The position numbers and the translations under genes are program-made. This document shows, in pieces, positions 1,430 through 17,300 of a stretch of DNA of 50,245 bases. The notes below the pieces were generated by a model that saw nothing but the letters and a program-made list of their open reading frames with translations, did not search any database and had not been told where the DNA came from. The stretch is taken from assembly GCA_937952095.1 (NCBI GenBank), contig CALFYG010000327.1, positions 1-50,245 of the forward strand. Direction: 5' to 3'. Source of the DNA: an uncultured Micrococcales bacterium (GTDB lineage: Bacteria; Actinomycetota; Actinomycetes; S36-B12; UBA10799). Numbering within the stretch: the stretch's first letter is position 1; each line of letters starts with the position of its first letter.

Positions 1430-1459
1430 TTGACATGGTTATTAACTTGTAATAACAAT
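1430..1459 (+). promoter_or_regulatory. Sigma70-type promoter candidate with embedded inverted repeat (possible operator)
   Basis: TTGACA (1430-1435), 17-nt spacer, TAACAA(T) (1453-1459). The spacer carries TTATTA-N5-TAATAA (1439-1455). Lies just upstream of the RHH gene. Confidence 0.35.
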
Positions 1460-1475
1460 GTTCCCTAGGAAGGAA

Positions 1476-1613
1476 ATGGAAATGAAAAGGAAAACCTTTT
1501 ATCTGAGTTTCGATTCTATTAAATGGATCGAAAAAATGGCCAAAAAGGAAAGCAGATCGTTAAGCAACTATCTTGACAATCTAATCCAGAAAATAATCAA
1601 GGAGCAAAAATAA
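1476..1613 (+). CDS. Ribbon-helix-helix (CopG/Arc-like) small DNA-binding protein, 45 aa; not in the ORF track (too short)
   Basis: Translation MEMKRKTFYLSFDSIKWIEKMAKKESRSLSNYLDNLIQKIIKEQK has a beta-strand (KTFYLSF) plus two helices, typical of RHH. The second ATG at 1482 has better spacing to AGGA. Stop TAA 1611-1613 overlaps the next ATG (TAATG). Confidence 0.55.
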   Translation: MEMKRKTFYLSFDSIKWIEKMAKKESRSLSNYLDNLIQKIIKEQK

Positions 1614-2362: not shown

Positions 2363-2387
2363 CACTTAACAATCAGGAGAAAATGAA

Positions 2388-2882
2388 ATGGTTGCACTAC
2401 CTTCTACCTACGTTCCGGATCAAGTCGAAGCTGCCACAGGCGGCGGGAGTGTTCCGGCTGGGAAATATCGCTGCGTTGTCTTGGGAAGCCAGGAAAAAGA
2501 CAATAAAGCCGGAACCGGGTCTTATGTTGAATTTAAATATCAGGTAACAGAAGGGCCGCATAAAGGATCTGATATTTTACAGCGTTTTAATTTCAACAAT
2601 CAAAATAAACAAGCCGTGGATATTGCCTTCGCGCAATTCAAGCAGCTTGCCGAGGCTTGCGGTAAGCCGGGATGCACGAATACCGATGATCTGAATAATT
2701 CTGTTGTCGTGATTACATACGGCCCGCAGAAGAACGCCCCAGAATATAATGAGGTTAAGAAGATTGAACCGGGCACAGCGACAACCGAGGGCTACGTTGC
2801 GCCGCCAGCGGTAACGGCCAAGCCAGCGGCGCAAGCTACTGCGGCGGCTGCGTCGAATGATGGCAAGCCTAGCTGGGCGTAA
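2388..2882 (+). CDS. DUF669-family protein (phage SSB-like partner of Sak4)
   Basis: VPAGKYRCVVLGSQEKDNKAGTGSYVEFKYQVTEGPHKGSDILQRFNF matches the DUF669 signature as I remember it. AGGAGA RBS 7 nt upstream of ATG 2388. Low-complexity Ala-rich C-terminal tail. Confidence 0.6.
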   Translation: MVALPSTYVPDQVEAATGGGSVPAGKYRCVVLGSQEKDNKAGTGSYVEFKYQVTEGPHKGSDILQRFNFNNQNKQAVDIAFAQFKQLAEACGKPGCTNTDDLNNSVVVITYGPQKNAPEYNEVKKIEPGTATTEGYVAPPAVTAKPAAQATAAAASNDGKPSWA

Positions 2883-2927
2883 CTTTAACGGCGGGAACTG
2901 CCTTAGTGCCATTTTTTGGAGAATGAA

Positions 2928-3686
2928 ATGACGAACTTAGCAACAATCGGGCACAATTTGCCCCCGACTGACGAAGAAATTCTTAAAGAAAAACTTCAAG
3001 AGCGCAGCCGTAAAGACATCGACCTTATGGCCGCTGTCATGGCTGAACCTGTGCCAGAAAAAATTGATACAGACGATGACGCAAAAAAGGCTGCTGATTT
3101 TATCAGCAAGATCAAATGTCTTGAGAAAGACTTTGAAAAAGTACACAAGGAAGAAAAAGCTCCGTATCTTTCCATGGGGCGCATTGTAGACGGGTTTTTT
3201 AATTCTCGGATTAAAGACCTTGAAGACTTTCGCAAGAAATATTCCAAGCCTGTTAATGATTTTCTAACCCGGAAAGCAGACGCGGAACGCGAAGCTATTC
3301 GGGCGCGTGAAGTTGCGGCGCGAGAAGCTGCTGATGCTCTTGCCGCACAAGCGGCGGCTCATGAAGCTGAAAATATTAAAGACACGGCCAATGAGCTTAT
3401 GGACTTGGCTGTTCAAGCTGAAAACAAAGCCGATAATCTTGGTAACTATGCTGATAATACTAAAAACGCTACGCTGGCTAAAATCAGAACTGAAAGCGGC
3501 GTTGTTTTATCTCAGCGCACGAAATGGGTTGGAGAGCCAACGGATGAAACTTATTCCGGGGTTGATCTAAATTCCATCCGCAAATGGATCAAGCCTGAAC
3601 ATATTCAGCTTGCTATCAATGCAGCGGTGCGTGATGGAGAGCGAAATATAGCCGGTGTGAAAGTTTACCAAAAGGCTGAGATTTAA
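2928..3686 (+). CDS. Hypothetical coiled-coil protein
   Basis: The long ORF in the track starts at TTG 2916. ATG 2928 is preceded by GGAGAA at good spacing. The central region is Ala/Glu/Lys-rich and predicted coiled-coil. No family recognised. Confidence 0.55.
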   Translation: MTNLATIGHNLPPTDEEILKEKLQERSRKDIDLMAAVMAEPVPEKIDTDDDAKKAADFISKIKCLEKDFEKVHKEEKAPYLSMGRIVDGFFNSRIKDLEDFRKKYSKPVNDFLTRKADAEREAIRAREVAAREAADALAAQAAAHEAENIKDTANELMDLAVQAENKADNLGNYADNTKNATLAKIRTESGVVLSQRTKWVGEPTDETYSGVDLNSIRKWIKPEHIQLAINAAVRDGERNIAGVKVYQKAEI

Positions 3687-3943
3687 TGAAATCAGAACTC
3701 GCAGCAATCGGCAAGGCATTGGACGATAAAACGGAATTGCCGTGGTGGACGGTTGATGACTATGTTGCATTGCTGCGAGATTGTCACACTAAACTTATGA
3801 AGATGAAGCCTAAAAAATCTTGCCAGAATTGCAGATTTTTTGATCTGACGAAATGCAATAAAGCAAATGCAATTCCGCCAGATCATATCAAGGCGAAGGG
3901 GTGTGAAATGTTTCATGACAATCTGGAGGATATTTTAGCATGA
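3686..3943 (+). CDS. Small Cys4 (putative zinc-binding) protein, paralog 1
   Basis: TAATG overlap with the upstream gene. C-terminal CQNCRFF...CNKA...IPPDHIKAKGCEMFHDN is shared with the next ORF. Confidence 0.55.
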   Translation: MKSELAAIGKALDDKTELPWWTVDDYVALLRDCHTKLMKMKPKKSCQNCRFFDLTKCNKANAIPPDHIKAKGCEMFHDNLEDILA

Positions 3944-4230
3944 TGGCCGGAAAGTTTAACCATGCAGATTTTACCGCTCTTTGCGTCTTGCTGAATAGCA
4001 ATGTCGGAATGACAGTAGAAGAACATGATAAATATACCTATATGCTGATGAATGCAGCGAATCAATTGCGCTGGCTGGCGGAACAAAAAGGATGCATGTC
4101 CTGCAAGTTTTTCTGCCGTGGAACTACAAAAATAACAGGATGCGAAAAAGCGGGAGGAAAACTTCCACCTGATAATATTCAAAAATCCGGCTGTGAAATG
4201 CACGAAAACAAGTTTGAGATTCCGTTCTAA
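3940..4230 (+). CDS. Small Cys4 (putative zinc-binding) protein, paralog 2
   Basis: ATGA overlap with paralog 1. CMSCKFF...CEKA...LPPDNIQKSGCEMHENK matches the motif of the previous ORF. Confidence 0.55.
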   Translation: MMAGKFNHADFTALCVLLNSNVGMTVEEHDKYTYMLMNAANQLRWLAEQKGCMSCKFFCRGTTKITGCEKAGGKLPPDNIQKSGCEMHENKFEIPF

Positions 4231-4255
4231 TCCCCAGAGCTTTAAAGGATAGTAA

Positions 4256-4609
4256 ATGAGATTAGAATTACCTTGGCCTCCGTCGATCCTATCGCCCAAT
4301 AGAATAGCCCATTGGCGCGTCAAGGCGAAGGCCAAGGCAAAGTATAAATCTGATTGTTACTATCTATGTGTTTCTCAAGAATTTGAAGATGACGGGCAGA
4401 ACATTCCAATCAAGATCATCTTCCACCCCCCGACGAAAAGATCATTCGATCTTGATAACCGGATTGCAGCGATGAAATCAGGTATCGATGGAGTAGCGGA
4501 AGCATTTGGAGTTAATGATAAGAGATTCAGGCCGATGACAGCGGATATTGGAGAAGTTGTTAAAGGCGGAATGGTTGTTTTAATTTTGAACGAAGGAGAA
4601 GAAAAATAA
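4256..4609 (+). CDS. rusA: RusA-family Holliday junction resolvase
   Basis: LPWPPSILSPNRIAHWR N-terminus and FDLDNRIAAMKSGIDGV acidic catalytic region are characteristic of RusA. Size of 117 aa fits. Confidence 0.85.
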   Translation: MRLELPWPPSILSPNRIAHWRVKAKAKAKYKSDCYYLCVSQEFEDDGQNIPIKIIFHPPTKRSFDLDNRIAAMKSGIDGVAEAFGVNDKRFRPMTADIGEVVKGGMVVLILNEGEEK

Positions 4610-4650
4610 CCCACCTCAATAAAACGCAACAATATTTCAATCAATTGTGT

Positions 4651-4678
4651 TTGAATATATGACTTTTTGGCATATAAG
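4651..4678 (+). promoter_or_regulatory. Sigma70-type promoter candidate upstream of denV
   Basis: TTGAAT (4651-4656), 16-nt spacer, TATAAG (4673-4678), in the 88-bp AT-rich gap. AGGAGAATAGGAA RBS precedes ATG 4698. Confidence 0.35.
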
Positions 4679-4697
4679 GATAATAGGAGAATAGGAA

Positions 4698-5045
4698 ATG
4701 ACCCGCATAAACTGCATCCCAGTAAACGAACTAACCAACAAGCATCTCTTATCCGAATATCGGGAGCTGCCTCGTGTGTTCAATCTGGCAAGGCCATGCC
4801 CTGATGCGCCCAGTCAATACGTTCTAGGGCCGGGGCATGTTAAATTCTTCTTTGACAAGCTGAAATATCTGCAACAAAGGCAAAAACAGATTGTGCAGGA
4901 ATGTTTAAACAGGGGCTTTAATATCACTCACACCTCTGTTGATTTTGATATGCCTTCTGATCTGGCGAATGACTGGATACCAACACCAGAGGCCATGGCA
5001 CTGAACCGGGCAAGGATCGTTGCAAGGTTGCTGGTGTCTTGGTGA
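4698..5045 (+). CDS. denV: Pyrimidine-dimer DNA glycosylase / AP lyase (T4 endonuclease V family)
   Basis: MTRINCIPVNELTNKHLLSEYRELPRVF aligns residue-for-residue with the T4 EndoV N-terminus (catalytic Thr2 and Glu23 conserved). GPGHVKFFFDKLKYLQQRQ..ECLNRGFNI is also conserved. Confidence 0.9.
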   Translation: MTRINCIPVNELTNKHLLSEYRELPRVFNLARPCPDAPSQYVLGPGHVKFFFDKLKYLQQRQKQIVQECLNRGFNITHTSVDFDMPSDLANDWIPTPEAMALNRARIVARLLVSW

Positions 5046-5076
5046 TGGAGATTGATATGTGGAGGGAATTAGAGTG

Positions 5077-5406
5077 ATGGAAGATAAATATAGGCAGCTA
5101 TCTGTTGAGAAAGCAGAGCTTTCTAATGGCGTTAACGCCTTAAAAAAGCAGCTTGGAATATATGGTAAGGTTGTTAATGGACAGAGGTTTCCTAAGTACA
5201 TTTTGCATGACCCCGCTTATAGCAAAATGTGCAGTTATAGAGATAGGATATTTGAAATTGAGAAGGAGTTAATAAAACTAAAAAAGAACGGGGTGGCACC
5301 AAACAAAAAAGATTTTAAAGACCTTATCTTGAAAATTATAGAAGAAAAAAATCCCGAACTATTTTTAGAGGCTAAAAATCAAGCTTATGAAAGGATGAAA
5401 GAATGA
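5077..5406 (+). CDS. Hypothetical coiled-coil protein
   Basis: The ORF track starts at GTG 5059. ATG 5077 lies 10 nt after GGAGGG. Lys/Glu-rich sequence, no family recognised. Confidence 0.5.
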   Translation: MEDKYRQLSVEKAELSNGVNALKKQLGIYGKVVNGQRFPKYILHDPAYSKMCSYRDRIFEIEKELIKLKKNGVAPNKKDFKDLILKIIEEKNPELFLEAKNQAYERMKE

Positions 5407-5549
5407 CCGACCTTGAATCCCTAACCGCCCGGATAGACAGGCTGGAAAATGCGTTGATGACTGCGCTGGTATGGATGGCAGGGAACAACCCGCCGACCGT
5501 CACTAATGCGGAGTTATGCGCGATTGATAAGATTATTAAGGGGGAATAA
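5403..5549 (+). CDS. Hypothetical small protein, 48 aa (below ORF-track cutoff)
   Basis: ATGA overlap with the upstream stop. Translation MTDLESLTARIDRLENALMTALVWMAGNNPPTVTNAELCAIDKIIKGE. Fills the gap up to the helicase gene exactly. Confidence 0.4.
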   Translation: MTDLESLTARIDRLENALMTALVWMAGNNPPTVTNAELCAIDKIIKGE

Positions 5550-5551
5550 GA

Positions 5552-6934
5552 ATGGAATATCAGGAATTTTTGAGGACTAAATCGCGTATAGATGTTCCGA
5601 CAGGGTTGCCAACAATCCCGCCGATCAATTCCAATGCGTTTGACTTCCAGCGTGATATTGTGTCATGGGCTTGTCGCCGTGGACGTTCCGCATTGTTTGC
5701 CGGAACTGGTCTTGGAAAGTCCCTGATGGAATTATCATGGGCAAATGCGCTTTATGAAGCCACTGGCGAACGCACGATCATATTCACGCCTTTAGCCGTT
5801 GCCGCTCAAATGAAGCGTGAAGCGACTAAATTCGGCATTGATGTCGATCATGTATCATCATGTACGGAAAGCAACAAACCGATTTTGATTACCAACTATC
5901 AAAAGCTGGATCATTTTGACATGACCAAGTTTAAGGGAGTTGTGCTGGATGAAAGCAGCATCCTGAAAAACCAGTCCGGCCATTACCGCACGAAGCTGAT
6001 TGAAGTCTGCAATAAAATACCCTATCGACTGGCAGCGACAGCAACGCCAAGCCCGAATGATTATATGGAGCTTGGAAACCATGCCGAATTCTGCGGGATC
6101 ATGTCATATACGGATATGCTTTCCACATTCTTTGTGCATGACGCAGCGAAAACGCAAGACTGGCGATTGAAAGGCCATGCGGAAGATGAATTCTGGAAGT
6201 GGATGGCGACATGGTCGGTCATGCTGCAGAATCCATCAGATCTTGGTTATGACGGGGAAAAATACAATCTTCCGCCATTGAACCAGATCCAGCATACCGT
6301 CGGAGCAAAATACGCCCCGAATATTGAAACAGGATTTTTGTTCCCTCTGGAAGCTCAATCCATGTCAGAACGGCTTAAAGTCAGGCGGGCGACGATTGAT
6401 GAACGGCTTGAAAAAGCCGCAGATATTGTAAATTCACAGCCGCAGGATTCATGGGTTGTATGGTGCAATTTGAATGATGAAAGCGACGAGCTGGAAAAAC
6501 TAATCCCTGATGCGGTTCAAATCAGAGGGGCAATGACGGAAGATCAAAAAGAAAAAATTCTTGAGGACTTTGCGCTTGGAAATATCCGCATATTGGTGAG
6601 TAAGCCATCATTAACCGGATTCGGGATGAACTGGCAGCATTGCAATAATACTTGCTTTGTCGGATTGAATGACAGCTTTGAGCAGATATTTCAATCCATC
6701 CGGCGGTTCTGGCGGTTCGGGCAGACCAAGCCAGTCAATGCTCACTTTATCGCTAGCGAATTAGAAGGCGCAGTTGTCGCCAATATCAAGCGGAAGGAAT
6801 TGCAATGCGAACATATGATGGCGCAGATGGTCAAGCATATGGCTGATTTGAGCGCGGATACGATACGCGGAGCAAAAAGAGATACGTTAACATACATTCC
6901 AACACAGAAAGCGGAGTTACCATCATGGATTTAA
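5552..6934 (+). CDS. SNF2/DEAD-like superfamily 2 helicase
   Basis: Motif I FAGTGLGKS, motif II VLDESS, motif III ATATPSPN, motif VI QSIRRFWRFGQ. Overlaps the downstream methyltransferase by 10 nt. Confidence 0.8.
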   Translation: MEYQEFLRTKSRIDVPTGLPTIPPINSNAFDFQRDIVSWACRRGRSALFAGTGLGKSLMELSWANALYEATGERTIIFTPLAVAAQMKREATKFGIDVDHVSSCTESNKPILITNYQKLDHFDMTKFKGVVLDESSILKNQSGHYRTKLIEVCNKIPYRLAATATPSPNDYMELGNHAEFCGIMSYTDMLSTFFVHDAAKTQDWRLKGHAEDEFWKWMATWSVMLQNPSDLGYDGEKYNLPPLNQIQHTVGAKYAPNIETGFLFPLEAQSMSERLKVRRATIDERLEKAADIVNSQPQDSWVVWCNLNDESDELEKLIPDAVQIRGAMTEDQKEKILEDFALGNIRILVSKPSLTGFGMNWQHCNNTCFVGLNDSFEQIFQSIRRFWRFGQTKPVNAHFIASELEGAVVANIKRKELQCEHMMAQMVKHMADLSADTIRGAKRDTLTYIPTQKAELPSWI

Positions 6935-7887
6935 AAGCAGTCAATCAGGTTATTACCAACGATTACGCTATTTATGAGGGGGATAGCTGCGAATTAATGC
7001 AAGCCATTCCGGATGCGTCAATTGGTTTTTCAATTCATAGCCCTCCTTTTGAAGGACTTTATAAGTTTTCTAACTCAGACCGGGACGTTTCAAATAGCGA
7101 AGGAGAAACATTCTGGAACCATTACGGATTTATCATTGATCAGCTTCTACGGATTACAAAGCCGGGGAGATTGGCCAGTGTCCATGTTATGCAGTTGCCT
7201 ACCAGCAAAACGCGGGATGGTTATATTGGAATGCGTGATTTTCGCGGTGAAGTCGTGCGGGAATTTCAGAAGCGAGGATGGATATTTTCGAGTGAGGTTT
7301 GCATCTGGAAAGACCCAGTAGTGGCGCAGCAGCGTACCAAATCAATCCGCCTTTTGCACAAACAGATTGAAAAAGACAGCTCAATATCCGGGCAAGGATT
7401 GGCGGATTATATTGTTACGTTCCGCAAGCCCGGAGAAAATATGGAACGGATTAGCGGGAAGTTTGAAATATACGTTGGCGAAGGAAACGCGCCGGAACCT
7501 ATTGAAAGCAGATTGCGCCGTCAATCACAGGCCGATGCGGAGAAATGGTACAGCATCGAGGTGTGGCAGCGATACGCCAGCCCGGTATGGATGGATATTA
7601 GTCAATCAAGAACATTACAATATCGTGGTGCAAGGGACGAGAAAGACGAGCAGCATATCAGCCCCCTGCAACTTGATGTGATTGAACGCTGCATCCATCT
7701 ATGGTCTAACCCCGGAGATATTGTTTTTACCCCGTTTATGGGGATTGGCAGCGAGGTTTATGGCGCGGTTGAGTTAGGCCGTAAAGGCATGGGGATTGAG
7801 CTGAAGGCCAGTTATTTCCGTCAGGCTGTGAAAAATCTTTCTGATGTCCAGACTAACAGAAACGATTTATTGAAGAACGCATCATGA
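6925..7887 (+). CDS. Beta-class N6-adenine/N4-cytosine DNA methyltransferase (N6_N4_Mtase type)
   Basis: Catalytic motif IV IHSPPFEG lies near the N-terminus and AdoMet motif I FTPFMGIGSE near the C-terminus (IV before I means beta class). SPPF is more typical of N4-C enzymes, but specificity cannot be read from sequence. Confidence 0.85.
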   Translation: MDLKAVNQVITNDYAIYEGDSCELMQAIPDASIGFSIHSPPFEGLYKFSNSDRDVSNSEGETFWNHYGFIIDQLLRITKPGRLASVHVMQLPTSKTRDGYIGMRDFRGEVVREFQKRGWIFSSEVCIWKDPVVAQQRTKSIRLLHKQIEKDSSISGQGLADYIVTFRKPGENMERISGKFEIYVGEGNAPEPIESRLRRQSQADAEKWYSIEVWQRYASPVWMDISQSRTLQYRGARDEKDEQHISPLQLDVIERCIHLWSNPGDIVFTPFMGIGSEVYGAVELGRKGMGIELKASYFRQAVKNLSDVQTNRNDLLKNAS

Positions 7888-8051
7888 CATCATCGCAGAT
7901 CAAAAAACTACGATCACGCCTAGACCTAACACAAGCTGAACTCGGCAAACTCATGGGTTTATCCGCCAGGACAGTCATGCGCTGGGAAGGCGGAAAGGCC
8001 CCTAACCCGACGCAGATTGCGTTTTTAAAACATTTGGCAAGAACGCAATAA
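7884..8051 (+). CDS. XRE/Cro-type helix-turn-helix protein, 55 aa (below ORF-track cutoff)
   Basis: ATGA overlap with the methyltransferase stop. LTQAELGKLMGLSARTVMRWEGG is a canonical HTH_3 motif. Confidence 0.65.
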   Translation: MTSSQIKKLRSRLDLTQAELGKLMGLSARTVMRWEGGKAPNPTQIAFLKHLARTQ

Positions 8052-8068
8052 AATTTCAATATATGGCC

Positions 8069-8097
8069 TTGCCCTATGTGACAAACTGGCGTATAAC
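8069..8097 (+). promoter_or_regulatory. Sigma70-type promoter candidate
   Basis: TTGCCC (8069-8074), 17-nt spacer, TATAAC (8092-8097), in the gap after the HTH gene. Confidence 0.3.
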
Positions 8098-8125
8098 TAT
8101 TTCTAACGAAACACGGAGAAAACAA

Positions 8126-8281
8126 ATGAGCAAACTTTTACAGAATTTTGAAGCTAACCCAACAAAAGAAAACGCTAATAAGGTTGTACGCCATGCCATG
8201 AAACATATGATGAGCTTGACGCTGTTAAACTCGGATCAGATTGCAGTTTATGACCGAGCATATAAAATGGCTGGTGTGTAA
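8126..8281 (+). CDS. Hypothetical small protein
   Basis: Internal ATG of ORF 8063..8281, preceded by ACGGAGAA RBS. The upstream extension overlaps the promoter-like AT-rich gap. Confidence 0.45.
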   Translation: MSKLLQNFEANPTKENANKVVRHAMKHMMSLTLLNSDQIAVYDRAYKMAGV

Positions 8282-8493
8282 TGACAACAGAACATTCTCA
8301 GCTTCTTGATAACCTGAAAGTCTTCGTCAAAGAAAACCGCCATGTTATTTCCAAATGCAGGTTTCAGGATGAGTTTTCTGCGATTGAGGTCGAACTGCAA
8401 GCCGTTATTGATAACGCGAATGAAGCGCAGGAGCAAAGAGATCGTGAAGAATATATTCGCTGTAACCGTATCTGTGGAGAGCAATTGGTATGA
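8281..8493 (+). CDS. Hypothetical protein
   Basis: TAATG overlap upstream and ATGA overlap downstream. Acidic 70-aa product, no family recognised. Confidence 0.5.
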   Translation: MTTEHSQLLDNLKVFVKENRHVISKCRFQDEFSAIEVELQAVIDNANEAQEQRDREEYIRCNRICGEQLV

Positions 8494-8744
8494 CAACAAG
8501 ATCGCAACGTAACTGCCGAAAGAAAAAAACATACAAATCACGATCAGAGGCAAAGGAAAAATCTATGTTTTACAAAAAACACAACGGAACGAAATTGAGG
8601 CCGTATAATTGCATCGAATGTAATAATTACCATTTGACAAGCAACGGAAATATCAGGGCCTTCATCATGGATGCAGTAACAGGGATAGCCATGATCGGCA
8701 TGTGCGCGGTCTGGTGCTTTGTTATATATGCGTTTGGGGGTTAG
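8490..8744 (+). CDS. Small basic zinc-ribbon-like protein with C-terminal transmembrane helix
   Basis: KTYKSRSEAKEK...LRPYNCIECNNYHLTS (Y-x-C-x2-C-x2-Y/W-H-L-T type motif seen in small phage proteins), followed by the hydrophobic AVTGIAMIGMCAVWCFVIYAF. Confidence 0.5.
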   Translation: MTTRSQRNCRKKKTYKSRSEAKEKSMFYKKHNGTKLRPYNCIECNNYHLTSNGNIRAFIMDAVTGIAMIGMCAVWCFVIYAFGG

Positions 8745-8747
8745 GGG

Positions 8748-8918
8748 ATGAACAACGAATTGAATGAAATTGCTGGTGGATCGAAGTTTACTGAATCTCA
8801 GATGATCGCCCTGCGATACATCAGGGACACGCTGGAGCATGTAAAACTACTGGCCGTACGGGAAGGGCTGATTATCGCTGATGATATTCAAGATGCAATC
8901 GACGCGGTGATGTCATGA
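8748..8918 (+). CDS. Hypothetical small protein, 56 aa (below ORF-track cutoff)
   Basis: ATG 8748 after GGGG. Translation MNNELNEIAGGSKFTESQMIALRYIRDTLEHVKLLAVREGLIIADDIQDAIDAVMS. Its stop overlaps the next ATG (ATGA-type). Confidence 0.4.
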   Translation: MNNELNEIAGGSKFTESQMIALRYIRDTLEHVKLLAVREGLIIADDIQDAIDAVMS

Positions 8919-9163
8919 GTATTATTGACGAACTTAACAGACTAAAACCGGGTGAAAGACTTGTGTATCTCGTTAATGACACGGGATGGTCGGGGAGGTT
9001 TGAACATAGGGAATTGTTCAACTGGTGTCAGGACGCACAAAAGAAAGGCACTTATGATTTTGTGCAGAGAAAGATAGCTGTGCCGCGTCATGCGCCGGGA
9101 TTGTTTGAGTACATTGCTATCAAAAAGGCGGTTCCGAAGCCGTCGATATGGAGGAAAACATGA
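8915..9163 (+). CDS. Hypothetical protein
   Basis: Coupled ORF in the same chain. No family recognised. Confidence 0.5.
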   Translation: MSIIDELNRLKPGERLVYLVNDTGWSGRFEHRELFNWCQDAQKKGTYDFVQRKIAVPRHAPGLFEYIAIKKAVPKPSIWRKT

Positions 9164-9309
9164 AATATATGATAACCGTTGACGGTCATAAAATAGAACA
9201 AATTGAAACGGCGAATGTGATCCATCACATCGAGGCTGAGAAGGTCTGTTACGAATGGGCGAAAGAGAGATTTATATCAGAAAAGGGTGTCAGGATGGTG
9301 AGATTATGA
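9160..9309 (+). CDS. Hypothetical small protein, 49 aa (below ORF-track cutoff)
   Basis: ATGA overlap at both ends. Translation MKYMITVDGHKIEQIETANVIHHIEAEKVCYEWAKERFISEKGVRMVRL. Confidence 0.4.
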   Translation: MKYMITVDGHKIEQIETANVIHHIEAEKVCYEWAKERFISEKGVRMVRL

Positions 9310-9461
9310 AAGTTTTTGATTTAACCGGGCCTGATGATCTTGATCCTAAAACCATCGTCGCCGATCTTATTGAATTATGCACGATGGCAGCAGAAACGAA
9401 TGTGATCCGGATCATTGATTTTGATAGAAATCCCAGCCATGGGGCTAGATTCACGTCGTAG
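9306..9461 (+). CDS. Hypothetical small protein
   Basis: Internal ATG of ORF 9255..9461 that forms an ATGA overlap with the preceding small ORF. Product MKVFDLTGPDDLDPKTIVADL... Confidence 0.4.
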   Translation: MKVFDLTGPDDLDPKTIVADLIELCTMAAETNVIRIIDFDRNPSHGARFTS

Positions 9462-9478
9462 CAAAATGGCAGGATGGT

Positions 9479-9546
9479 GGCGGGGGATTCCTCACAGTGC
9501 ATGTGCTAATCGCTGTGTCAGAATCACAACACCCCGCCCCCTTTCT
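9479..9546 (+). other. GC-rich nested stem-loop followed by TTTCT (terminator-like or small structured RNA)
   Basis: GGCGGGG (9479-9485) pairs with CCCCGCC (9533-9539). An inner CACAG/CTGTG stem is enclosed. A T-rich run follows. It lies in the only sizeable non-coding gap (9462-9606) of block A. Confidence 0.25.
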
Positions 9547-9606
9547 AAAGCAGATTGCGGTCTGTTTTGGTGAGGAATTTAACCACTAGAAACTAAGGAG
9601 AATGAA

Positions 9607-9987
9607 TTGAATATCAACGATCTCACTATCGGCCAAGCGAAAGAACTCTCTTCCATGCTGCAAGGCCAAGCGGCTAACACTGGATTGAATAATTACGCTA
9701 TCGGTAAGAGAGTCATCATCCGTACCTATACCGCTGGTGTCTGGTTTGGAGTTCTGGATCAGAAATCAGGAAATGAGGTTATCCTTAAAAACGGTCGTAG
9801 ATTGTGGCGTTGGCACGCAGCGGAAAGTATTTCCCTGAGTGCGGTTGCAGTTTATGGAATCAATGCGGATAAGAGTTCGCTTGCCCCGGCTGTTGAAGTG
9901 ATATGGCTTGAGGCGATTGAAATCATCCCTGTTACCGATAAAGCGGCGAAAACGATTGAGGGCGCAAAAGATGCCAAGGCTCAATGA
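9607..9987 (+). CDS. Hypothetical protein (beta-rich, SH3-like feel)
   Basis: TTG start 7 nt after AAGGAG. The only nearby ATG (9602) hits a stop immediately. GKRVIIRTYTAGVWFGVLDQKSGNEVILKNGRRLWRWH is not assignable to a named family from memory. Confidence 0.55.
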   Translation: MNINDLTIGQAKELSSMLQGQAANTGLNNYAIGKRVIIRTYTAGVWFGVLDQKSGNEVILKNGRRLWRWHAAESISLSAVAVYGINADKSSLAPAVEVIWLEAIEIIPVTDKAAKTIEGAKDAKAQ

Positions 9988-10069
9988 TTTCATTGCCGCC
10001 GGCTCCGGCTCCGGCTACGGCTCCGGCTCCGGCGACGGCTCCGGCTACGGCTACGGAGAGGGATGGTGA
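9971..10069 (+). CDS. Possible 32-aa Gly/Ser/Tyr-repeat peptide spanning the compositional junction
   Basis: ATG 9971 lies inside the end of the previous gene. Translation MPRLNDFIAAGSGSGYGSGSGDGSGYGYGEGW. Stop TGA 10067-10069 overlaps ATG 10063 of the next ORF. It could be an artefact of the junction. Confidence 0.3.
   Translation: MPRLNDFIAAGSGSGYGSGSGDGSGYGYGEGW
10001..10054. repeat. 54-bp microsatellite, three 18-bp units of GGCTCC/GGCTAC/GGCGAC hexamers
   Basis: The sequence reads GGCTCCGGCTCCGGCTAC GGCTCCGGCTCCGGCGAC GGCTCCGGCTACGGCTAC. It sits exactly where base composition switches. Confidence 0.9.
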
Positions 10070-10191
10070 CCGTCTTGGAGAACGCCCACTCCATTGTCGG
10101 TGTCGGCCCCGACGACGCCGCAGCGATCGCCCGAACCCGGAACCTGGTCGCCGCCAGGCTGGCCGAGGTCACGTGGGACTCGGAGCGATGA
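10063..10191 (+). CDS. Hypothetical small protein, 42 aa
   Basis: Translation MVTVLENAHSIVGVGPDDAAAIARTRNLVAARLAEVTWDSER. GC3-rich. ATGA overlap with the next gene. May be the truncated end of a longer gene if the junction is artificial. Confidence 0.3.
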   Translation: MVTVLENAHSIVGVGPDDAAAIARTRNLVAARLAEVTWDSER

Positions 10192-10475
10192 ACGTGAGGG
10201 AAGTGTCGGAATCCGCCGGGCTGACCGTCGAAGAGTTGGACGCTGCTCTCGACGTGGTCGGATGGATGCTGGAGCATCCGTCGTACCGGTACGACGAGGA
10301 CACGGCCGCGCTCCGCCACACCCGGACTCTGCTGCAGGTCGAGATGCAGTCACGCTCGCAGCCCGACGCCTACCGCCGCCTGGCCCACGACCTGCTCAGC
10401 TTGCGGGACGCCGACCCCGCCGCATACAGGGCGCTCATGGCCCGTCTGGACGCCGACCAGGGAGGCAACCGATGA
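10188..10475 (+). CDS. Hypothetical protein
   Basis: Internal ATG of ORF 9984..10475. The upstream PAPAPAT extension is the microsatellite read in another frame. The product from MNVREVSESAGLTVEELDAALD onward looks like normal protein. Confidence 0.5.
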   Translation: MNVREVSESAGLTVEELDAALDVVGWMLEHPSYRYDEDTAALRHTRTLLQVEMQSRSQPDAYRRLAHDLLSLRDADPAAYRALMARLDADQGGNR

Positions 10476-10891
10476 CCGACACGACCGACGACGACGAGAG
10501 GGCGGCCATCAGGGGCGAACTGCTCGCCACCCTGCGGGTGACCGCCCCGAAGATGGCCGCCAGGCTGGACGATCACTGGCGGGAGGAAGGAACGACCGTC
10601 CAGATGCCGGTCGACCCCGTCCCCCGCACATGCAGCGTGTGCGGAGAGAAGATCAAGGCCCGGGCCGAAACGTCGGGCAGGTTCCGCACCGTCAACTGGG
10701 TCGACAGCGGGGGTTCGATCGCCGGACCGGACCCGATCACCGGCCCCGACCCGTACGGGCGTCTCGCCGAACTGGCCGACACCGACCCGGCTGCCTACAT
10801 GTACCTGCTGACACGGGTCGAACAGGGGTTCACGCTCCACGTCCACCGGCCAGCACCGACCGAACGCACCTACCCGTCCGACCGGTCCTGA
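10472..10891 (+). CDS. Hypothetical protein with CxxC motif
   Basis: ATGA-coupled internal start of ORF 10094..10891. The N-terminal IRGELLATLRVTAPKMAARLDDHWREEG is paralogous to the 11720 ORF. Contains CSVCGEK. Confidence 0.55.
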   Translation: MTDTTDDDERAAIRGELLATLRVTAPKMAARLDDHWREEGTTVQMPVDPVPRTCSVCGEKIKARAETSGRFRTVNWVDSGGSIAGPDPITGPDPYGRLAELADTDPAAYMYLLTRVEQGFTLHVHRPAPTERTYPSDRS

Positions 10892-11382
10892 CGCCGCCCC
10901 AACTCACGCAACACCTGAGACACCCGCGACACCGTCACCCCCAACTCGGCAGCCACCTCGGTCGCCGTCCACCCCGCCAACAACCGCCACAGAATCGACC
11001 GCTCCCGCTCCGACGGCCGAAACGACTCGACCAGCACCGACAGCGACTCTGAGTCCCACACCCCGAACACGTCGACAGGGAAGCCGTCCAACGACACTTC
11101 CGAGGACCGCTGAGCGTGACGCACCGTCCCCGGACGCCCCACCGTGCGCCGCAGATCATCCACCACCCGCCGCCGGGCATGCACCACCCGAGCCCCCGTC
11201 GACAAACCCGACCCCTCCGACAGCCACAACGACACGGCCGCCACCTGCACACAATCCTCGTACAACGGCGAGAACCGCCACGGCGCCGCCGCCTGCCGCG
11301 CCAGCCCGTATAGGTCGTCCCCCACACCTTGAAGGCTACGAGGCGGCCGGGTCCGACGCCCCTCCGGGTGGCTGCACCGCAC
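10870..11382 (-). CDS. ECF-like sigma-70 family RNA polymerase sigma factor
   Basis: Region 4 HTH: SERERSILWRLLAGWTATEVAAELGVTVSRVSQVLRE. Region 2-like: LYEDCVQVAAVSLWLS. Start uncertain (GTG 11382 or GTG 11325). Confidence 0.65.
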   Translation of the reverse strand: MRCSHPEGRRTRPPRSLQGVGDDLYGLARQAAAPWRFSPLYEDCVQVAAVSLWLSEGSGLSTGARVVHARRRVVDDLRRTVGRPGTVRHAQRSSEVSLDGFPVDVFGVWDSESLSVLVESFRPSERERSILWRLLAGWTATEVAAELGVTVSRVSQVLRELGRRQDRSDG

Positions 11383-11719
11383 GCCGAATGGATCGGGCGC
11401 CGACTCCTGCCGATCGACAAGGCGATGTCATCGGTGGGTGTTGCGGCGGCCGACCCCGCGGAGGATCTGGCACACCCGTGACGGGGTGACGTTCGTGCGC
11501 CGCCCCCGATCTCGGCCAACGCCGCACCGGCAGCACAAGCCAGCAGGTCCTTCGTGGTCGGGGGTGCCCTGTCACGGCCACGAAGCCCGCCGTGAATCCG
11601 TACAAGTCACCCCCCCCGGTAGCCTAAGAAACCGGGCAGACCAACCCCGAAACACCGAATACGGCAAACCGACAGGGGCCAGCCCAGCACAAACACCGAT
11701 AGGTGGAGGGGGTGCCATC

Positions 11720-11851
11720 GTGGTTACAGCAGAACAGCGGGGCGAGATCCTGGCGATGCTGCGGCGGAAAGCGCCGGTGACGGCGGCCCGGCTGGAGCGC
11801 CAGTGGCGGGAGATGGGGCTCGACATCGTGGAGAAGCGGCCCGACAGCTAG
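11720..11851 (+). CDS. Hypothetical small protein, 43 aa
   Basis: GTG start 9 nt after GGTGGAGGGGG. Translation VVTAEQRGEILAMLRRKAPVTAARLERQWREMGLDIVEKRPDS shares a motif with the 10472 gene. Lies directly upstream of the portal gene. Confidence 0.45.
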   Translation: MVTAEQRGEILAMLRRKAPVTAARLERQWREMGLDIVEKRPDS

Positions 11852-11920
11852 GCATTCCCGGGTGCGATGCTGTCGGGGTCGACTCGGGGTCGACGCTGGA
11901 CAGTGATCCGAGGAGGCCCG

Positions 11921-14398
11921 GTGCCACTCAACCGACGACGCTCTGGTGAGCCACGCACCGCCGCAGTGGTGGCGGCCTCGGATTTGCGGGGGCGGCTGCG
12001 GTCGTCGGCGAAGGCCCGGACGTGGCAGCAGAAGGTCATCAGGTATGACCGGGAGGGTCCGTCGGTCGCCGGGTACTACCTGGACACGGTGCAACTGCTG
12101 GCGACGTTGTGCCCGCTGATCGGTGAGCGGCGCGAGGCGGACGGGACGTGGTCCCGGGTGAACGACCCGGTGGTGACCCGGGCGATCGCATCCTTCTCCA
12201 GCCCGATGTATTCGACGGCGGAACTGTTCGCCTTGCCGGTGCGGCACTTGGATGCGATCGGCGAGTCGTGGGTCATGTTCTCGGCCGACATCGGTTGGTG
12301 CGTGGCGACCGTCCCGAACGTGAAGATCATTCACGGCGGGAATGCTGTCGAGTTCACCGACCCGTACGGCCTGACTCGGCGGGTGCCGAAGGAGCGGGCG
12401 TTCCGGTTGTGGACCCAGGACCCGTACGAGCCGTGGCTGCCGACGTCGGCGATGCAGCGTGCCCTGCCGGACTTGCGGCGCTTGGACGCCGCCTGCCGTA
12501 ACCAGACCAGGTCGGCGGAGTCGCGGCTCATCATGAACGGTCTGGTGGCGTTCCCGCCGGATGAGGGTCCGACCCGTGCCTTGGGCCAACCGGCGGACGG
12601 GCGGGTGTTGACGGGTGTCGAAAAGACGGTCGATGACTTCATCACGATCGGGCAGGAGGCGTTCAATGACGACGACAGTCCGGCAGCGTCGATGCCGTTC
12701 CCGTACATCGGCGGGAAGGCCGAGTACGTCCAGGTTGGGCGCCCGGTGGACGAGCAGGTGCTGGAGGTCGAGAAGGCGGCGCTGGAAGCGTTCGCCCGGG
12801 GTGTCAACTTTCCGGCACAGCTCCTGACGGTCGGCCCGGGTTCGGCGAACCATTGGAACGAGTGGATCCTGCAGGAAGTGCAGCACAAGATGGGCTTGGC
12901 CCCGAAGCTGCGGCCCGTGTGCGATGCCCTGACGACGATCTTCCTGCGGCCGCTGCTGGAACGGATCAAGACCCGGGTGACGTCCTGGGACCTTGACCCG
13001 TCGGAGATCCGGCTCGGGTTCGACCTGGACTTCCTCACGTCGAAGCCGGACCAGTCGGCGCAGGCGTTGCAGGCGTGGGCGCAGGGCATCGTCGGCCGGG
13101 AGGGTGCAGCCCAGATGCTGAAGGTCCCCGAGTCGTGGCTGTTGCCGATCCCCGACGGGATGACCGAGTACGAGCATTGGGAGTTGGCGACCGGAAGCAA
13201 GGGCGCCCCGTACGCCGAGGTGGACGGTGACGGCAAGCTGATCGTCCCGCCGCCGGATCCGGGTATGGGCGGGGATCCGGGTATGGGCATGGACCCGTAC
13301 GGCGGGGATCCAGGCATGGGCGAGGATCCGTCGGCACTGGACGAGGCCCCGCCCGACGGTTCCGACGACCTGTTCTCTGCCCCGTACGACCCGCCCCGGG
13401 CTCGGATGTCGGCCGCATCGGACCCGAACAGGTTGAACGTGCTGTTGGCCGAGCTGGTCATCGTGGACGACCGCCTCACGCAGAACCTGTCGGGCGTCAG
13501 CCGAGTCCTGTCCGAAGCGATCACCGTCGAGGCCGTCAAAGAGGGTCTACGGGCGATGGACCGTGACGACCCGTTGCGGGCCGAGTTGCGGGAGATGCCG
13601 TCCCAGAAGGCGTGGCGGGAACTGCCCGACGAGGCCAAGGCGCAGGTCGACACCGTCGGGGTGGCGGAACGGACAGCGGCCAAGTACGAGGGGATCGTCT
13701 CCGGGTTCCTGTCCGAAGCGGCCGCCGACGCCGAGAAGGCGTGGACGATCTTCGGGGTGCCCGCCCCCGAGTTCCTGGTGGCCGCCGGGGCGACAGCGTT
13801 CCTGGTGGCGACGGTGGACGCCGCCGCCGGATTCCTCGGCGGGGTCACGATCGGACCCCTGAAGGCCACGTTGGATGCAGCGCAGGCTGGTCTGTTGACG
13901 GCGGCTGTCGTCGGTCTGTTGCCGGTGCGGGCTGCGATGGTGGCCGCCGCCGGGGCGAGGGTCGACTTGGACGGCCGGGTGGTGCAGTCGCCGGGCGGAA
14001 CCCCGTACGGGCCGGGTGGCGGGCCGTGGGAGGGTGCGTTGGGTATGGCGCTGGGCGACCCGTCGATCGCACAGATTCGGACGGTCGCTGAAGAGGAAGC
14101 GGCCGGGACCCCGGGCGAGGGACTGTCGGATTCCGACACCCCTTCTGGCGGGGGACCCGGATCCGGGGGTGCCGGGCCGGGAGCCACTCCTGGTCAACCG
14201 CCCGGGGGTGCCCGGACGGCCCACGTCCAGTTCAGGTGGGCGCACGGGTTCTTCGGCAACCCCGAGACGCCGTTCCCGCCGCATGAGGCTCTCGACGGAC
14301 GCCGGTTCGACTCACTCGCCGACGTGCCCTACGGCCTGTACCCGGGTGACCATGCCGGATGCCGGTGCGGGTTCATCCCCGAGATCAAGGTCGTGTGA
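11921..14398 (+). CDS. Portal protein fused to a C-terminal MuF-like (SPP1 gp7 / Mu F) minor head protein domain
   Basis: GTG 11921 follows GAGGAGG (the ORF track ATG 11867 is the alternative). The N-terminal ~430 aa look portal-like (..SAESRLIMNGLVAFP.., ..GSANHWNEWILQE..). The C-terminus, FPPHEALDGRRFDSLADVPYGLYPGDHAGCRCGFIP, matches the MuF signature. A DPGMG repeat linker lies between them. Confidence 0.75.
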   Translation: MPLNRRRSGEPRTAAVVAASDLRGRLRSSAKARTWQQKVIRYDREGPSVAGYYLDTVQLLATLCPLIGERREADGTWSRVNDPVVTRAIASFSSPMYSTAELFALPVRHLDAIGESWVMFSADIGWCVATVPNVKIIHGGNAVEFTDPYGLTRRVPKERAFRLWTQDPYEPWLPTSAMQRALPDLRRLDAACRNQTRSAESRLIMNGLVAFPPDEGPTRALGQPADGRVLTGVEKTVDDFITIGQEAFNDDDSPAASMPFPYIGGKAEYVQVGRPVDEQVLEVEKAALEAFARGVNFPAQLLTVGPGSANHWNEWILQEVQHKMGLAPKLRPVCDALTTIFLRPLLERIKTRVTSWDLDPSEIRLGFDLDFLTSKPDQSAQALQAWAQGIVGREGAAQMLKVPESWLLPIPDGMTEYEHWELATGSKGAPYAEVDGDGKLIVPPPDPGMGGDPGMGMDPYGGDPGMGEDPSALDEAPPDGSDDLFSAPYDPPRARMSAASDPNRLNVLLAELVIVDDRLTQNLSGVSRVLSEAITVEAVKEGLRAMDRDDPLRAELREMPSQKAWRELPDEAKAQVDTVGVAERTAAKYEGIVSGFLSEAAADAEKAWTIFGVPAPEFLVAAGATAFLVATVDAAAGFLGGVTIGPLKATLDAAQAGLLTAAVVGLLPVRAAMVAAAGARVDLDGRVVQSPGGTPYGPGGGPWEGALGMALGDPSIAQIRTVAEEEAAGTPGEGLSDSDTPSGGGPGSGGAGPGATPGQPPGGARTAHVQFRWAHGFFGNPETPFPPHEALDGRRFDSLADVPYGLYPGDHAGCRCGFIPEIKVV
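13256..13330 (+). repeat. In-frame degenerate 18-bp tandem repeat (DPGMGG x4) in the portal-MuF linker
   Basis: The sequence reads GATCCGGGTATGGGCGGG / GATCCGGGTATGGGCATG / GACCCGTACGGCGGG / GATCCAGGCATGGGCGAG. Confidence 0.85.
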
Positions 14399-17300
14399 TG
14401 GCGAAGCTGCCCCGAGACGGCGATAGTGACGGCCGCATCTTCGACGGCACGAAACGGGAGATGCCCGCCCCGACGAAACTGGTCGAGGTGGCCGAGAAGG
14501 CCGCCCGGGTCGTGGACGATGTGGACGATGTGGACGATGTGGACGTTCCGTCGCGGGTCAACTCCGGTGACGCCGACCGGCCGCTGGTCGACCCCGATGT
14601 TGTGGCACCGGGCGGATCGATCGGTCCGACAATCCTGTCCGAGCCGTGGCCGACCGGTCCGCCCAGTCCGAACACGGGGTGGAGGCTGCCGTTGGACGAC
14701 GTGACCCTCCCGGGCGGTCGCCGCGTGAAGATCGTGTCCCACGGGGGCGACTCCCGGGACGGCTACTACTCGTCGTCCTATGTGGCGTTCGACGCTGACA
14801 GCGGGGGCAAGCTCGGCTACCTCGACTATCAGCTCGGCCACGGCGAACTGCACATCGGCATGGTGTCCACCAACGACGACGTTCGGGGCGAAGGCGTCGC
14901 CGACGCCCTTCTCGGCCGCACGCTCGCCGACGCCGACCCCGGTTCGACCGTGTTCAGCGGGTACAAGACGGACGAGGGTGCAGGTTGGTGGGACCACGTC
15001 GCCCCGATCCTCGCCGATCGTGGGTTCGAAGTTGGCGACCCCGGATTCGCCCTGGACGCCCCGGACGCCCCGGACGCCCCGGACGCCGGTGGTGAGCGGC
15101 TCGATCCCTTGTCGATCACCCGTTCAGGCAGCCCGGTCCGTTGGAAAGAGGGTGGATGGCAACCCGGCACCCCGACGCGTTGGGTGAAGGGCGACGCCTC
15201 CCAACGGACGATCGACGCCCGGATGCGGGCCGTGCGGGCGCTCATGGAGGACGAACTGCCCCAACTCAAGGGCAAGAAGTTCACGGTCGACACTTGGCTC
15301 AACTACGACGAGTTCCATGCTGACCACCCGTACGGCGGTGACGCTGCCGGGGTGGCCGGGTGGCGGCCCGAGCTGGGCGAGCACGGGTCGGTGTACGTCT
15401 CCCCGGAAGTGACCCGGGGCCTGGCTCGCAACGACCGGGAGGCCGTGCGGGACTGGCGGATCGTCATGCACGAACTGGTGCATGCGGCATCCCCGCAGAC
15501 CGTGTCGAACAGCGGGCCGGAACCGGTCATGGAAGAAGGGATGGCGGAGATCCTCTCGGCCGACATCGCTGCCCGCCGCTTGGACCTGGCTGGGTTCGCG
15601 AGCGACGGCCGCCACGGCGCCCCGAAGTGGACCGAGATGGAAGGGCTCGCTGTTGGCGCCAACTACAAGGACCGGGTGGCGGCGCTCATCATGAACGCCG
15701 GGCAACGCACCGGCTGGGACCGTGACGCCACCCGGGCCATGCTGCGCGACTGGTGGGACGGCGGCAGCTACAGCCCTTATTTCCGGCGGATCGAACGTCG
15801 CGACGACGGACTCGACCCGGACGCCTACACGGCGAAGCAACGCGACGAGATCAACGCCCGGTACGACGACCTGATCGCCCGGCTCCCCGAACACGCCGAC
15901 GAGTACGAGGCCGACCGGGCACGCGAACTGGCTGACGCGACGACCCCCGACGGCGACTGGCGCTGGCAGGCCAACCAGGAATGGGAGAAGGGTGTCGAGT
16001 CGGCCCGCTCCCACGGCGTGGACGTCGACCGGATCCCGTTCGACTACACCAACGAGCCGTACTGGGACCTCGCCGACTCCAGGGAAGTGGTCGCTGAACG
16101 CGACACGGTCGGAGCGTCCCTGCTCTACTGGCTGCTCGACGGGTCCGACGGGCGCACCGCCGAAACCGCCACCACGGTGGAGGCCCCGACGACCGAACAC
16201 CCGACCGGGGACCGTTTCGGGTCGCTCGCCGATGCCACAGGTGCGGGGAAGGTCACGGTCACTGACGCCGACGTGAAGCCCGGCATGGTGACCGTCGACA
16301 ACGGGGGCGACCCGTTGCTGCACATCCAGGCTCCGGGTGACAAGCCGGACACTTGGGTAGCGGTCGACGGTGCGGGCGGTGGCCGCACATACCGCCTGCC
16401 CGGATCGGTGGACGTGGCCGCCATGGCCCGGTCCGATGACCCGGGGGCAGCGTTGGCGGCCGATGCGGCGCTGCGGGGACCGTGGCGCAACCGTCGCCCC
16501 GTGTCGGCCCGGCGACGGTCACAAGCGTTCAACCTGCTGAACGAGGTGCAGGCTGCACCGATGGCCGACGAGCCACTGGTGGCGGCACCCGACCCGGACG
16601 TGTTCGACGGCTCCGACCTGAAGCCCGGCGACCGGTTCGACGTGCCGGTCATGTCGGCGGTCCCGGCCGATGGGGCGTGGCCGACCCGCACCGGGGGCGA
16701 CCACACGGCGGGACTCGCCGAAGGGTGGGCGAGGCTCGACCCGGAGACGCGTGGTCTGCTCGACTCCGGTGACGTCGAACAGATGGGCGCCCGCATGGCC
16801 CCGGAACCCCGGACGGTGCTCCGGTTCGACACGTCGCGGGCTCTGCCTGGCGAGGGTGGCAGTCACACCGTCACCGGCCGGTTCGTCGTGGACGGGGTCG
16901 AGGACGTCGAGGATCCCGACGGGCTCCCCTACTGGGACGGTGCCGGATTCCGGCAGTCCCCGGCCCGGGTGGTGCGGGCGCACTGGGTCGAGGACGTGGA
17001 CGCTCCTGACGGCCGCGGGCCGGTGGCGACCCCGCCGGGGTGGACACGGCAAGGTCCACCAGTGTTGGACGATTGGACGACGCGCGAACCGGTCGGCGGG
17101 TGGGCGAGCGAGGCGGACCGGATCCGGGCGGCGCAGACGTGGCCGACCGGGTCACAGGCGGTGACCTTCACTTTCGGGGACGGCGACGGGCGCGTCGACA
17201 TGGCGGTCCATGAGCCGTGGCAGATCGACCAGCAGAAGCTCGCACAGTTGGGTTCGACGGTGGCGACTCTCCAGCGGTCGTTCCAGCCGCCGGTGCCGTC

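Follow-up and report, generated by a model that had tools for sequence, protein, structure and literature searches.

Does the abrupt change from one type of phage DNA to another at about 10.0 kb of contig CALFYG010000327.1 record a genetic exchange between two phages, or did it arise when the sequence was put together? The stretch of DNA that we analysed, referred to here as the window, is 50,245 nt long and stems from an assembly assigned to an uncultured Micrococcales bacterium (GCA_937952095.1). A sequence-only reading had preferred a join of two phage genomes, by assembly or by concatenation, at a low-complexity repeat. We name the contributors of the left and the right part parent A and parent B, and compare each part with contigs on which its genes occur in their native context. 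The general picture that emerges is that the window is probably, at a likelihood that we put at about 90%, a misassembled chimeric metagenomic contig of two unrelated phages and not a biological mosaic.

Nucleotide composition on the two sides of the junction

The switch in composition at 10.0 kb is real and sharp. When GC content was calculated for bins of 1 kb, values of 0.42–0.51 were obtained for all bins up to position 10000 and of 0.65–0.72 for all later ones, that is, GC rises from about 45% left of the junction to about 68–69% right of it. At a resolution of 100 nt the shift is finished between about 9950 and 10050, which bears out the earlier claim of an abrupt change between two types of DNA, without a gradient and within less than 100 bp. 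GC-rich third codon positions and frequent GTG starts had likewise been claimed for the right side, and both are readily apparent: in a hand-chosen set of plus-strand ORFs, mean GC3 is 0.46 on the left (range 0.34–0.53) and 0.86 on the right (0.81–0.93), with ranges that do not overlap, and GTG serves as start codon in one of 19 ORFs on the left and in six of 19 on the right. Sliding-window GC and tetranucleotide distance had been proposed as checks, and the latter separates the two sides just as clearly, the correlation coefficients being 0.69–0.86 for comparisons within the left part, 0.93–0.96 within the right part and only 0.02–0.24 between them. GC content, codon use and oligonucleotide signature thus all change abruptly at the join, without any sign of amelioration, and the similarity in composition and codon usage that two modules residing in one host should exhibit in a natural mosaic was not found (GC3 0.46 vs. 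0.86).

The low-GC segment and its native continuation

The segment derived from parent A (positions 1..10011, plus strand, about 45% GC) carries a replication module, as judged from Pfam assignments and from its match to a native contig. Domains detected here are DUF3987 (primase/helicase-like), AAA_24 (Sak4-type), DUF669 and Pyr_excise (DenV), and further genes encode a SNF2-type helicase, an N6/N4 methylase, an HTH protein and a DUF6948 protein. From the gene set originally proposed for this side, Sak4, DUF669 and DenV are therefore confirmed by Pfam, but RusA is not, for which no Pfam match was obtained in any left-side ORF. Nor could the label "proteobacterial-style" be established for this half: relatives of the helicase occur at comparable distance (41–47% identity) in phages of many phyla, and such relatives would hardly allow the host of parent A to be named. 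A PADLOC search with five larger ORFs yielded nothing.

The DUF6948 protein (Pfam PF22253, E 2e-28) is encoded at 9607..9987 on the plus strand by the last of the parent A genes that is complete; this gene starts with TTG preceded by an AAGGAG site. Its 126-aa product is found in identical form on two other contigs, L001 and L002. The latter (ERZ650225) terminates within a repeat array. L001 (ERZ650311 NODE_1391; 12,093 bp, coverage 9.35) runs on: the DUF6948 gene is followed there by a gene for a 79-aa Gly-Ser/Asp/Tyr repeat protein and then by low-GC genes, including those for an Acb2/Tad1-hairpin protein and an RNA ligase. The DNA 3' of the array in L001 has a GC content of 47.5%, and its tetranucleotide signature correlates with that of the left part of the window (r 0.69–0.75) but not with that of the right part (r 0.21–0.24). 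The course of parent A beyond the array is seen on this single contig, together with the compositional continuity. Over positions 695–10056 the window is 98.15% identical to L001, with differences that are patchily distributed and completely absent from 9414 to 10045. As identity of the left half to L001 is only 98.15%, the window does not originate from the ERZ650311 assembly itself.

The high-GC segment and its native upstream region

The remainder of the window (10046..50245, plus strand, about 68% GC) stems from parent B and is actinophage-like, according to PHROG and Pfam assignments and to its match with contig L006. It begins with a gene for a 42-aa protein (10063..10191, plus strand), which is also called in L005, L006, L010, L011 and L012, and continues with a gene for a 95-aa protein (10188..10475, plus strand), the exact product of which occurs in 181 blocks of the gene-position collection and which served as the anchor for finding native contigs. 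Farther downstream, we found a sigma-70 region-4/HTH-like gene on the minus strand (10870-11382, PHROG/Pfam assignments) and, on the plus strand, the genes for the portal protein (11867..14398; phrog_776, E 3e-43) and the major head protein (39745..41514; phrog_777, E 5e-19). When the head protein was compared with deposited phages by tblastn, the only relatives retrieved were capsid genes of Streptomyces and Arthrobacter phages, with 24–26% identity. Portal, head protein and these relatives agree with the earlier description of the head genes on this side as actinophage-style. The right side also harbors four very large ORFs (1931, 1335, 1351 and 2125 aa), giant ORFs of the virion module, as well as two glycosyltransferase genes and small early-type genes.

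In its native context, the region upstream of the anchor gene looks entirely different from that in the window. L006 (ERZ650311 NODE_505; 24,536 bp, coverage 36.99) contains about 10 kb of high-GC genes 5' of the 95-aa gene, encoding WhiB, ERF, DUF932, a 1001-aa protein, SSB and small proteins, and directly 5' of the 95-aa gene lie a gene for a 100-aa Gly-Asp/Ser/Tyr repeat protein and the 42-aa gene known from the window. High-GC genes of this kind (WhiB, ERF, DUF932, 1001-aa protein, SSB) precede the 95-aa gene in the 10 matches listed. The DNA 5' of the anchor, which encodes these proteins, has a GC content of 65% in 11 independent contigs from varied samples and assemblers (L003–L012 and L020), and the window alone deviates, with 44%. 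The upstream DNA of L006 correlates with the right half of the window at a tetranucleotide r of 0.95–0.96. Alignment of window positions 9999–20475 with L006 resulted in 99.96% identity, the only four mismatches (10004, 10005, 10010 and 10011) being array bases specific for the left parent; from 10012 to 20475 the window and NODE_505 are 100% identical. Strains of parent B vary at the array: some lack it, one has a short array, and in L003 there is a scaffold gap, i.e., a run of N.

The last gene of the window (49798-50193) is present on 833 blocks of contigs. In its native context it is followed by another gene, the called length of which is variable, and five of the six contigs listed with this last gene stop about 0.4–1.2 kb beyond it. 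The end of the window at position 50245 therefore has the appearance of a normal break of the contig, located in a region that is variable.

The parents meet in a 34-nt word

At the switch, Tandem Repeats Finder detected a hexamer (GGC-NNC) array on the plus strand at 9999..10056 (period 6 with 9.7 copies and period 18 with 3.2 copies, score 100), in agreement with the (GGCTCC/GGCTAC)n repeat that had been noticed here. It is a remnant of longer native arrays, which comprise 210 nt in L001 and 252 nt in L006. The change from one parent to the other can be narrowed down to positions 10012..10045 (plus strand), an exact word of 34 nt, CGGCTACGGCTCCGGCTCCGGCGACGGCTCCGGC, that is common to both. 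The word is located at 9322–9355 in L001 and at 9825–9858 in L006, and no longer one is common to these contigs: a shared 35-mer does not exist, and all common words of at least 17 nt fall within the repeat genes of the two contigs. The window is free of mismatches with L001 up to 10045 and with L006 from 10012 onwards, and the nearest diagnostic bases of the two parents, at 10011 and 10046, are 35 nt apart. The sequence before the word is specific for the left parent (TTCATTGCCGCCGGCTCCGGCTCC, 9989–10012, or, slightly extended, ATTTCATTGCCGCCGGCTCCGGCTCC, 9987–10012), and that behind it for the right parent (TACGGCTACGGAGAGGGATGGTGACC, 10046–10071, or TACGGCTACGGAGAGGGATGGTGACCG, 10046–10072); the left-specific word 9987–10012 and the right-specific word 10046–10072 lie within 90 nt of each other. 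Each side of the window therefore matches a different genome that continues past the junction with sequence of its own. The 34-nt word is offset from the start codon of the repeat gene by 41 nt in L001 and by 245 nt in L006, in both cases 2 modulo 3, and because the codon phase is equal, the reading frame is kept when the parents are switched within it.

This equal phase explains why an ORF bridges the junction in frame and overlaps its neighbors on both sides. The ORF (9971..10069, plus strand) encodes a hybrid 32-aa Gly-Ser-Tyr protein, MPRLNDFIAAGSGSGYGSGSGDGSGYGYGEGW, to which the 79-aa repeat gene of parent A contributed the head (MPRLNDFIAAGSGS...) and the 100-aa repeat gene of parent B the tail (...GYGYGEGW, followed by the stop codon). 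The first 17 nt of the ORF overlap the 3' end of the DUF6948 gene, and its stop codon overlaps the start of the next gene in the sequence ATGGTGA at 10063–10069. ORF and flanking contacts were thus present just as had been described; the accompanying suggestion that the contacts could be coincidental does not hold, as the start overlap is native in L001 and was inherited from the left parent, and the stop overlap, the native arrangement of the 42-aa gene in parent B, is found in L006 and was inherited from the right parent. The ORF is made from the two ends of genes for Gly-(Ser/Tyr/Asp) dipeptide-repeat proteins of phages, but differs from such native proteins in being a hybrid and, with 32 aa, much shorter than those of the parents with 79 and 100 aa. 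Dozens of these repeat proteins are encoded in IMG/VR, either as stand-alone proteins or as the N-terminal region of larger ones. Searches against Pfam and PHROGs assigned the repeat proteins to no family and returned only sub-threshold low-complexity matches, e.g., TrAA12; a megablast search of phage genomes with the repeat gene gave no match, probably owing to the low-complexity filter, and a literature search for Gly-(Ser/Tyr/Asp) repeat proteins found nothing relevant.

The junction is absent from other assemblies

A search pattern that combined the left-specific and the right-specific flank at a distance of 30–60 nt was absent from IMG/VR and from JGI metagenome contigs, and scans with the left-flank pattern retrieved solely NODE_1391, in its native form. 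Exact-product look-ups in a collection of 153 billion gene positions found the 32-aa hybrid product, the alternative 53-aa product with TTG start, the 163-aa product of an alternative-frame ORF (9984-10475) and also the AAA_24 protein of the window on no other contig, a result that means just this, since products unique to the window may be hidden in the collection. The junction is consequently not replicated in other assemblies or samples, as it would have to be for a natural mosaic to be recovered independently. It had further been proposed to search the two sides separately. This led to a different native contig for each half, but to a complete genome for neither: a megablast comparison of either half with 50,697 deposited phage genomes resulted in no near match, and none of these genomes is a complete reference for either parent.

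How the junction may have originated

Chimeric contigs are documented for the assembly of viral metagenomes, and distantly related viruses have been joined in simulated viral metagenomes (PMC3901335; see also PMC3100316). The window resembles known chimeric contigs that arose at inter-genomic repeats in that two genomes from a community are joined at a sequence common to both and are discordant in composition and, as far as the coverage of the parents in ERZ650311 indicates, in abundance; it differs from them in the joining sequence, which is a low-complexity word of 34 nt and neither a conserved gene nor a mobile element.

We envisage the following course of events. Phage A, with about 45% GC, and phage B, actinophage-like with about 68% GC and WhiB genes, would have co-occurred in one community, each natively carrying a small gene that consists almost entirely of Gly-Ser/Tyr/Asp dipeptide repeats. 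Both genes draw on the same four codons (GGC, TCC, TAC and GAC), which gives rise to exact words, up to 34 nt long, that the two genomes have in common. An assembler that builds a k-mer graph from short reads may then have followed the first repeats of A into the common 34-mer, left it through the last repeats of B and continued along B, this being the shortest route through the tangle of repeats in the graph, in a community that contained the parents at unequal depth. The bridging 32-aa ORF would be a by-product, with a start overlap derived from A, a stop overlap derived from B and the frame retained. The common word would be long enough to merge the two genomes in an assembly graph at k ≤33. 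Values of k in this range are used by short-read assemblers in early rounds. The ERZ650311 assembly keeps the parents apart, on two SPAdes-style contigs with coverages of 9.35x and 36.99x, i.e., about fourfold apart; these figures are taken from the contig names and, coming from an assembly other than that of the window, are a proxy. Observed directly are the identity of both parents, how each of them continues natively, where the crossover lies and that the junction is missing from the other contigs searched; we infer that the join was made by an assembler and not in a cell.

Several points speak against an assembly error, among them the single contig on which parent A is seen to continue beyond the array and the identity of only 98.15% between this contig and the left half. 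With diagnostic bases so close together, a true junction would be covered by reads of the ordinary length of 100–150 nt, and a false one might have been avoided if reads were threaded through the assembly graph. Furthermore, an in-frame crossover at the longest stretch of common identity is also what homologous recombination would produce. A genuine recombinant, formed in one cell by A and B or relatives of them via the short homology of the 34-nt stretch, would therefore show the same intact frame at the same place, and several other features fit as well: recombination functions are encoded by both phages (AAA_24/Sak4 and DUF669 on the left, ERF in native B), the repeat is located between early/replication genes and virion genes (portal, head) in both, a typical place for module exchange, and the 34-mer is spread across phages of 36–70% GC, among the matches listed. 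According to the modular theory of phage evolution, modules are exchanged at gene boundaries or short conserved sequences, and natural phage mosaics indeed share with the window a sharp junction between replication and structural genes at a short common sequence with frames preserved. Unlike these mosaics, the window combines modules that are 24 GC points and 40 GC3 points apart and whose signatures are uncorrelated, its parents co-occur and the hybrid is unreplicated; we know of no natural phage mosaic joining modules about 24 GC points apart. In addition, the best-matching sample contains both parents in unrecombined form and at different depths, yet the hybrid was found just once. Amelioration is zero on either side, with positions 10012–20475 still 100% identical to the native parent, GC3 values of 0.46 and 0.86 imply very different hosts, no comparable jump in GC is seen among 77 phage contigs that carry the repeat naturally, and closure of the genome would need a second crossover, of which there is no sign. 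Taken together, we consider a recombination event improbable. Quite improbable, too, is a broader version of this idea, in which the join is real, repeat genes act as universal recombination linkers that let phages of different hosts swap modules, and the window is a captured example. If it were true, phages of very different hosts could exchange whole modules through near-identical repeat DNA.

Blunt concatenation or artificial splicing of two records, for instance in a database or a pipeline, with a boundary that happens to fall on the repeat, is the other way in which unrelated sequences could have been brought together, and the fact that the halves match different native contigs would suit it. 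An arbitrary join would, however, not be expected to hit the only 34-mer that the parents have in common. The transition is seamless in this word and cuts both repeat genes internally, and contig-end sequence, a duplication or a spacer are absent at the join. We have therefore rejected concatenation, to which we attach hardly any probability, on the grounds that the join lies inside sequence common to both parents. Accordingly, of the two modes in which phage genomes were thought to have been joined at the low-complexity repeat, the assembly join stands and the blunt concatenation does not. The abruptness of the compositional change could also indicate the boundary of an integrated element, either a prophage or an island carried by the replicon of a host, or a phage within a phage. 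Here, both sides are phage modules, and the native contigs run through the site. A tRNA search of the whole window detected none, a search for direct and inverted repeats between 8500 and 11600 yielded, besides the array, three short two-copy matches, all of which lie on the high-GC side and none across the boundary, and integrase or transposase domains were not encountered in the ORFs scanned. The earlier statement that no att-like repeat, tRNA, integrase or transposase marks the boundary is borne out by these searches, and, with tRNA, flanking att-like repeats and, in the ORFs scanned, integrase lacking at a site through which the native contigs continue, an integrated element was rejected as next to impossible.

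The repeat array as an assembly hazard

Returning to the chimeric assembly as the reading that we prefer, the properties of the array itself are revealing. Exact repeats occur within both native arrays, 33 nt long in L001 and 47 nt long in L006, so that graphs built with small k are tangled there. At least 120 IMG/VR contigs carry the 34-mer of the junction, several of them terminate in the array, and the flanks of its carriers range from 36 to 70% GC among the matches listed. The codons GGC, TCC, TAC and GAC occupy 97.5% of the array codon positions in the IMG/VR contigs with the 34-mer, although it has to be kept in mind that part of each array is biased, the loci having been chosen for containing this word. 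The GC content of the arrays (0.71–0.81) is nearly independent of that of the flanks (r 0.23). Of the IMG/VR carriers listed, 77 have flanks of 500 nt or more on either side of the array, and in these the GC content differs across it by a median of 0.024 (95th percentile 0.059, maximum 0.122). The corresponding difference is 0.036 in native L001, 0.034 in native L006 and 0.244 in the window; the next candidate for a discontinuity is contig L039, with a difference of 0.12.

The array locus is an assembly hazard, as demonstrated by the end of L002 within it, the gap in L003, the internal repeats and the 34-mer carriers, at least 120 in number. The Gly-Ser/Tyr/Asp repeat is thus potentially a recurrent trap in viral assemblies: a single repeat gene with near-fixed codon usage provides identical words of 34 nt or more across phages of very different GC content, and contigs break at such arrays and can be falsely joined there. 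A discontinuity in GC content or tetranucleotide signature across such an array gives an inexpensive warning of chimeras in collections of viral contigs.

For the window, this means that what appeared to be an "extraordinary mosaic" would probably be without biological meaning. The contig should be split within 10012–10045 before it enters host prediction, taxonomy or gene-sharing networks, and before gene flow across phyla is claimed from it. Wider interest attaches only to the repeat gene, which is widespread and compositionally invariant among phages.

Dipeptide-repeat genes in phages

Phages widely carry genes encoding Gly-(Ser/Tyr/Asp) dipeptide repeats. Such loci were found in the window (9999-10056), in the native contigs of the low-GC phage (L001, ERZ650311 NODE_1391, 9281-9520) and of the high-GC phage (L006, ERZ650311 NODE_505, 9580-9882) and in the IMG/VR loci L020-L139, and at least 120 IMG/VR contigs with flanks of 36-70% GC hold the junction 34-mer, the longest exact word common to the two native contigs. 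The arrays span 48-480 nt, consist to 97.5% of the codons GGC, TCC, TAC and GAC, and stay at 71-81% GC irrespective of the GC content of the genome. They occur as small stand-alone ORFs and also as the N-terminal part of larger proteins in at least two families; neither Pfam nor PHROGs has a family for the repeat. Among the 77 IMG/VR carriers with at least 500 nt on each side of the array, the largest GC difference (0.41 vs 0.53) was seen across the array of L039 (IMGVR_UViG_3300028603_000141, 4337-4426); this locus may be a further chimera, joined at the repeat that also holds the window's junction.

The repeat site of the high-GC phage was compared between L006 (9580-9920) and L004, L007, L008, L009, L011 and L020. 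In this phage, the repeat gene and the 42-aa gene that follows it have duplicate N-termini (VTVLEDAYSVVGFG and VTVLENAHSIVGVG, respectively), and because of this duplication the array looks like an insertion between direct repeats of about 40 nt. The strains vary at this locus: in some, the array is missing and a 119-aa gene is found instead, the array of L011 is short, and in L008 and L020 the two versions are combined in a hybrid.

Gene content of the high-GC phage

The portal gene is separated from the head gene by, among others, four very large ORFs of 1931, 1335, 1351 and 2125 aa (window 14359-35881). The 1931-aa product contains a 2_5_RNA_ligase2 domain (2'-5' RNA ligase superfamily) and DUF7178, the 1335-aa product matches solely PHROG families of unknown function, and the 1351-aa and 2125-aa products have no match in Pfam or PHROGs. 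No terminase was recognised across the 40 kb of the high-GC side. A short way upstream of the portal gene, the opposite (minus) strand holds an ORF of 170 aa whose C-terminus is sigma-70 region-4/HTH-like (10870-11382); it is kept in the native contigs with a called length of 121-151 aa. Shortly downstream of the major head protein, with a small minus-strand ORF (41590-42060) in between, are two neighbouring glycosyltransferase-like genes (42088-44176; phrog_1721, Gly_transf_sug DXD motif).

Strain variation

The window lacks accessory genes seen in relatives. Beyond its array, on the downstream side, the low-GC phage encodes an Acb2/Tad1-hairpin (anti-defence sponge-like) protein and has a gene for an RNA ligase (L001 9595-9819 and 10048-10587). 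An IS605 OrfB/TnpB-type gene is present in one high-GC phage strain and a weak AcrVA2-like match in another (L013 18826-19755 and L017 9141-9710). Differences between window 695-10056 and NODE_1391 are unevenly spread: 500-nt stretches hold from 0 to 47 of them, 7001-7500 and 9414-10045 are free of differences, and 1001-2000 has many. This patchiness suggests that the left half of the window reflects either strain-level mosaicism or a mixed-strain consensus.
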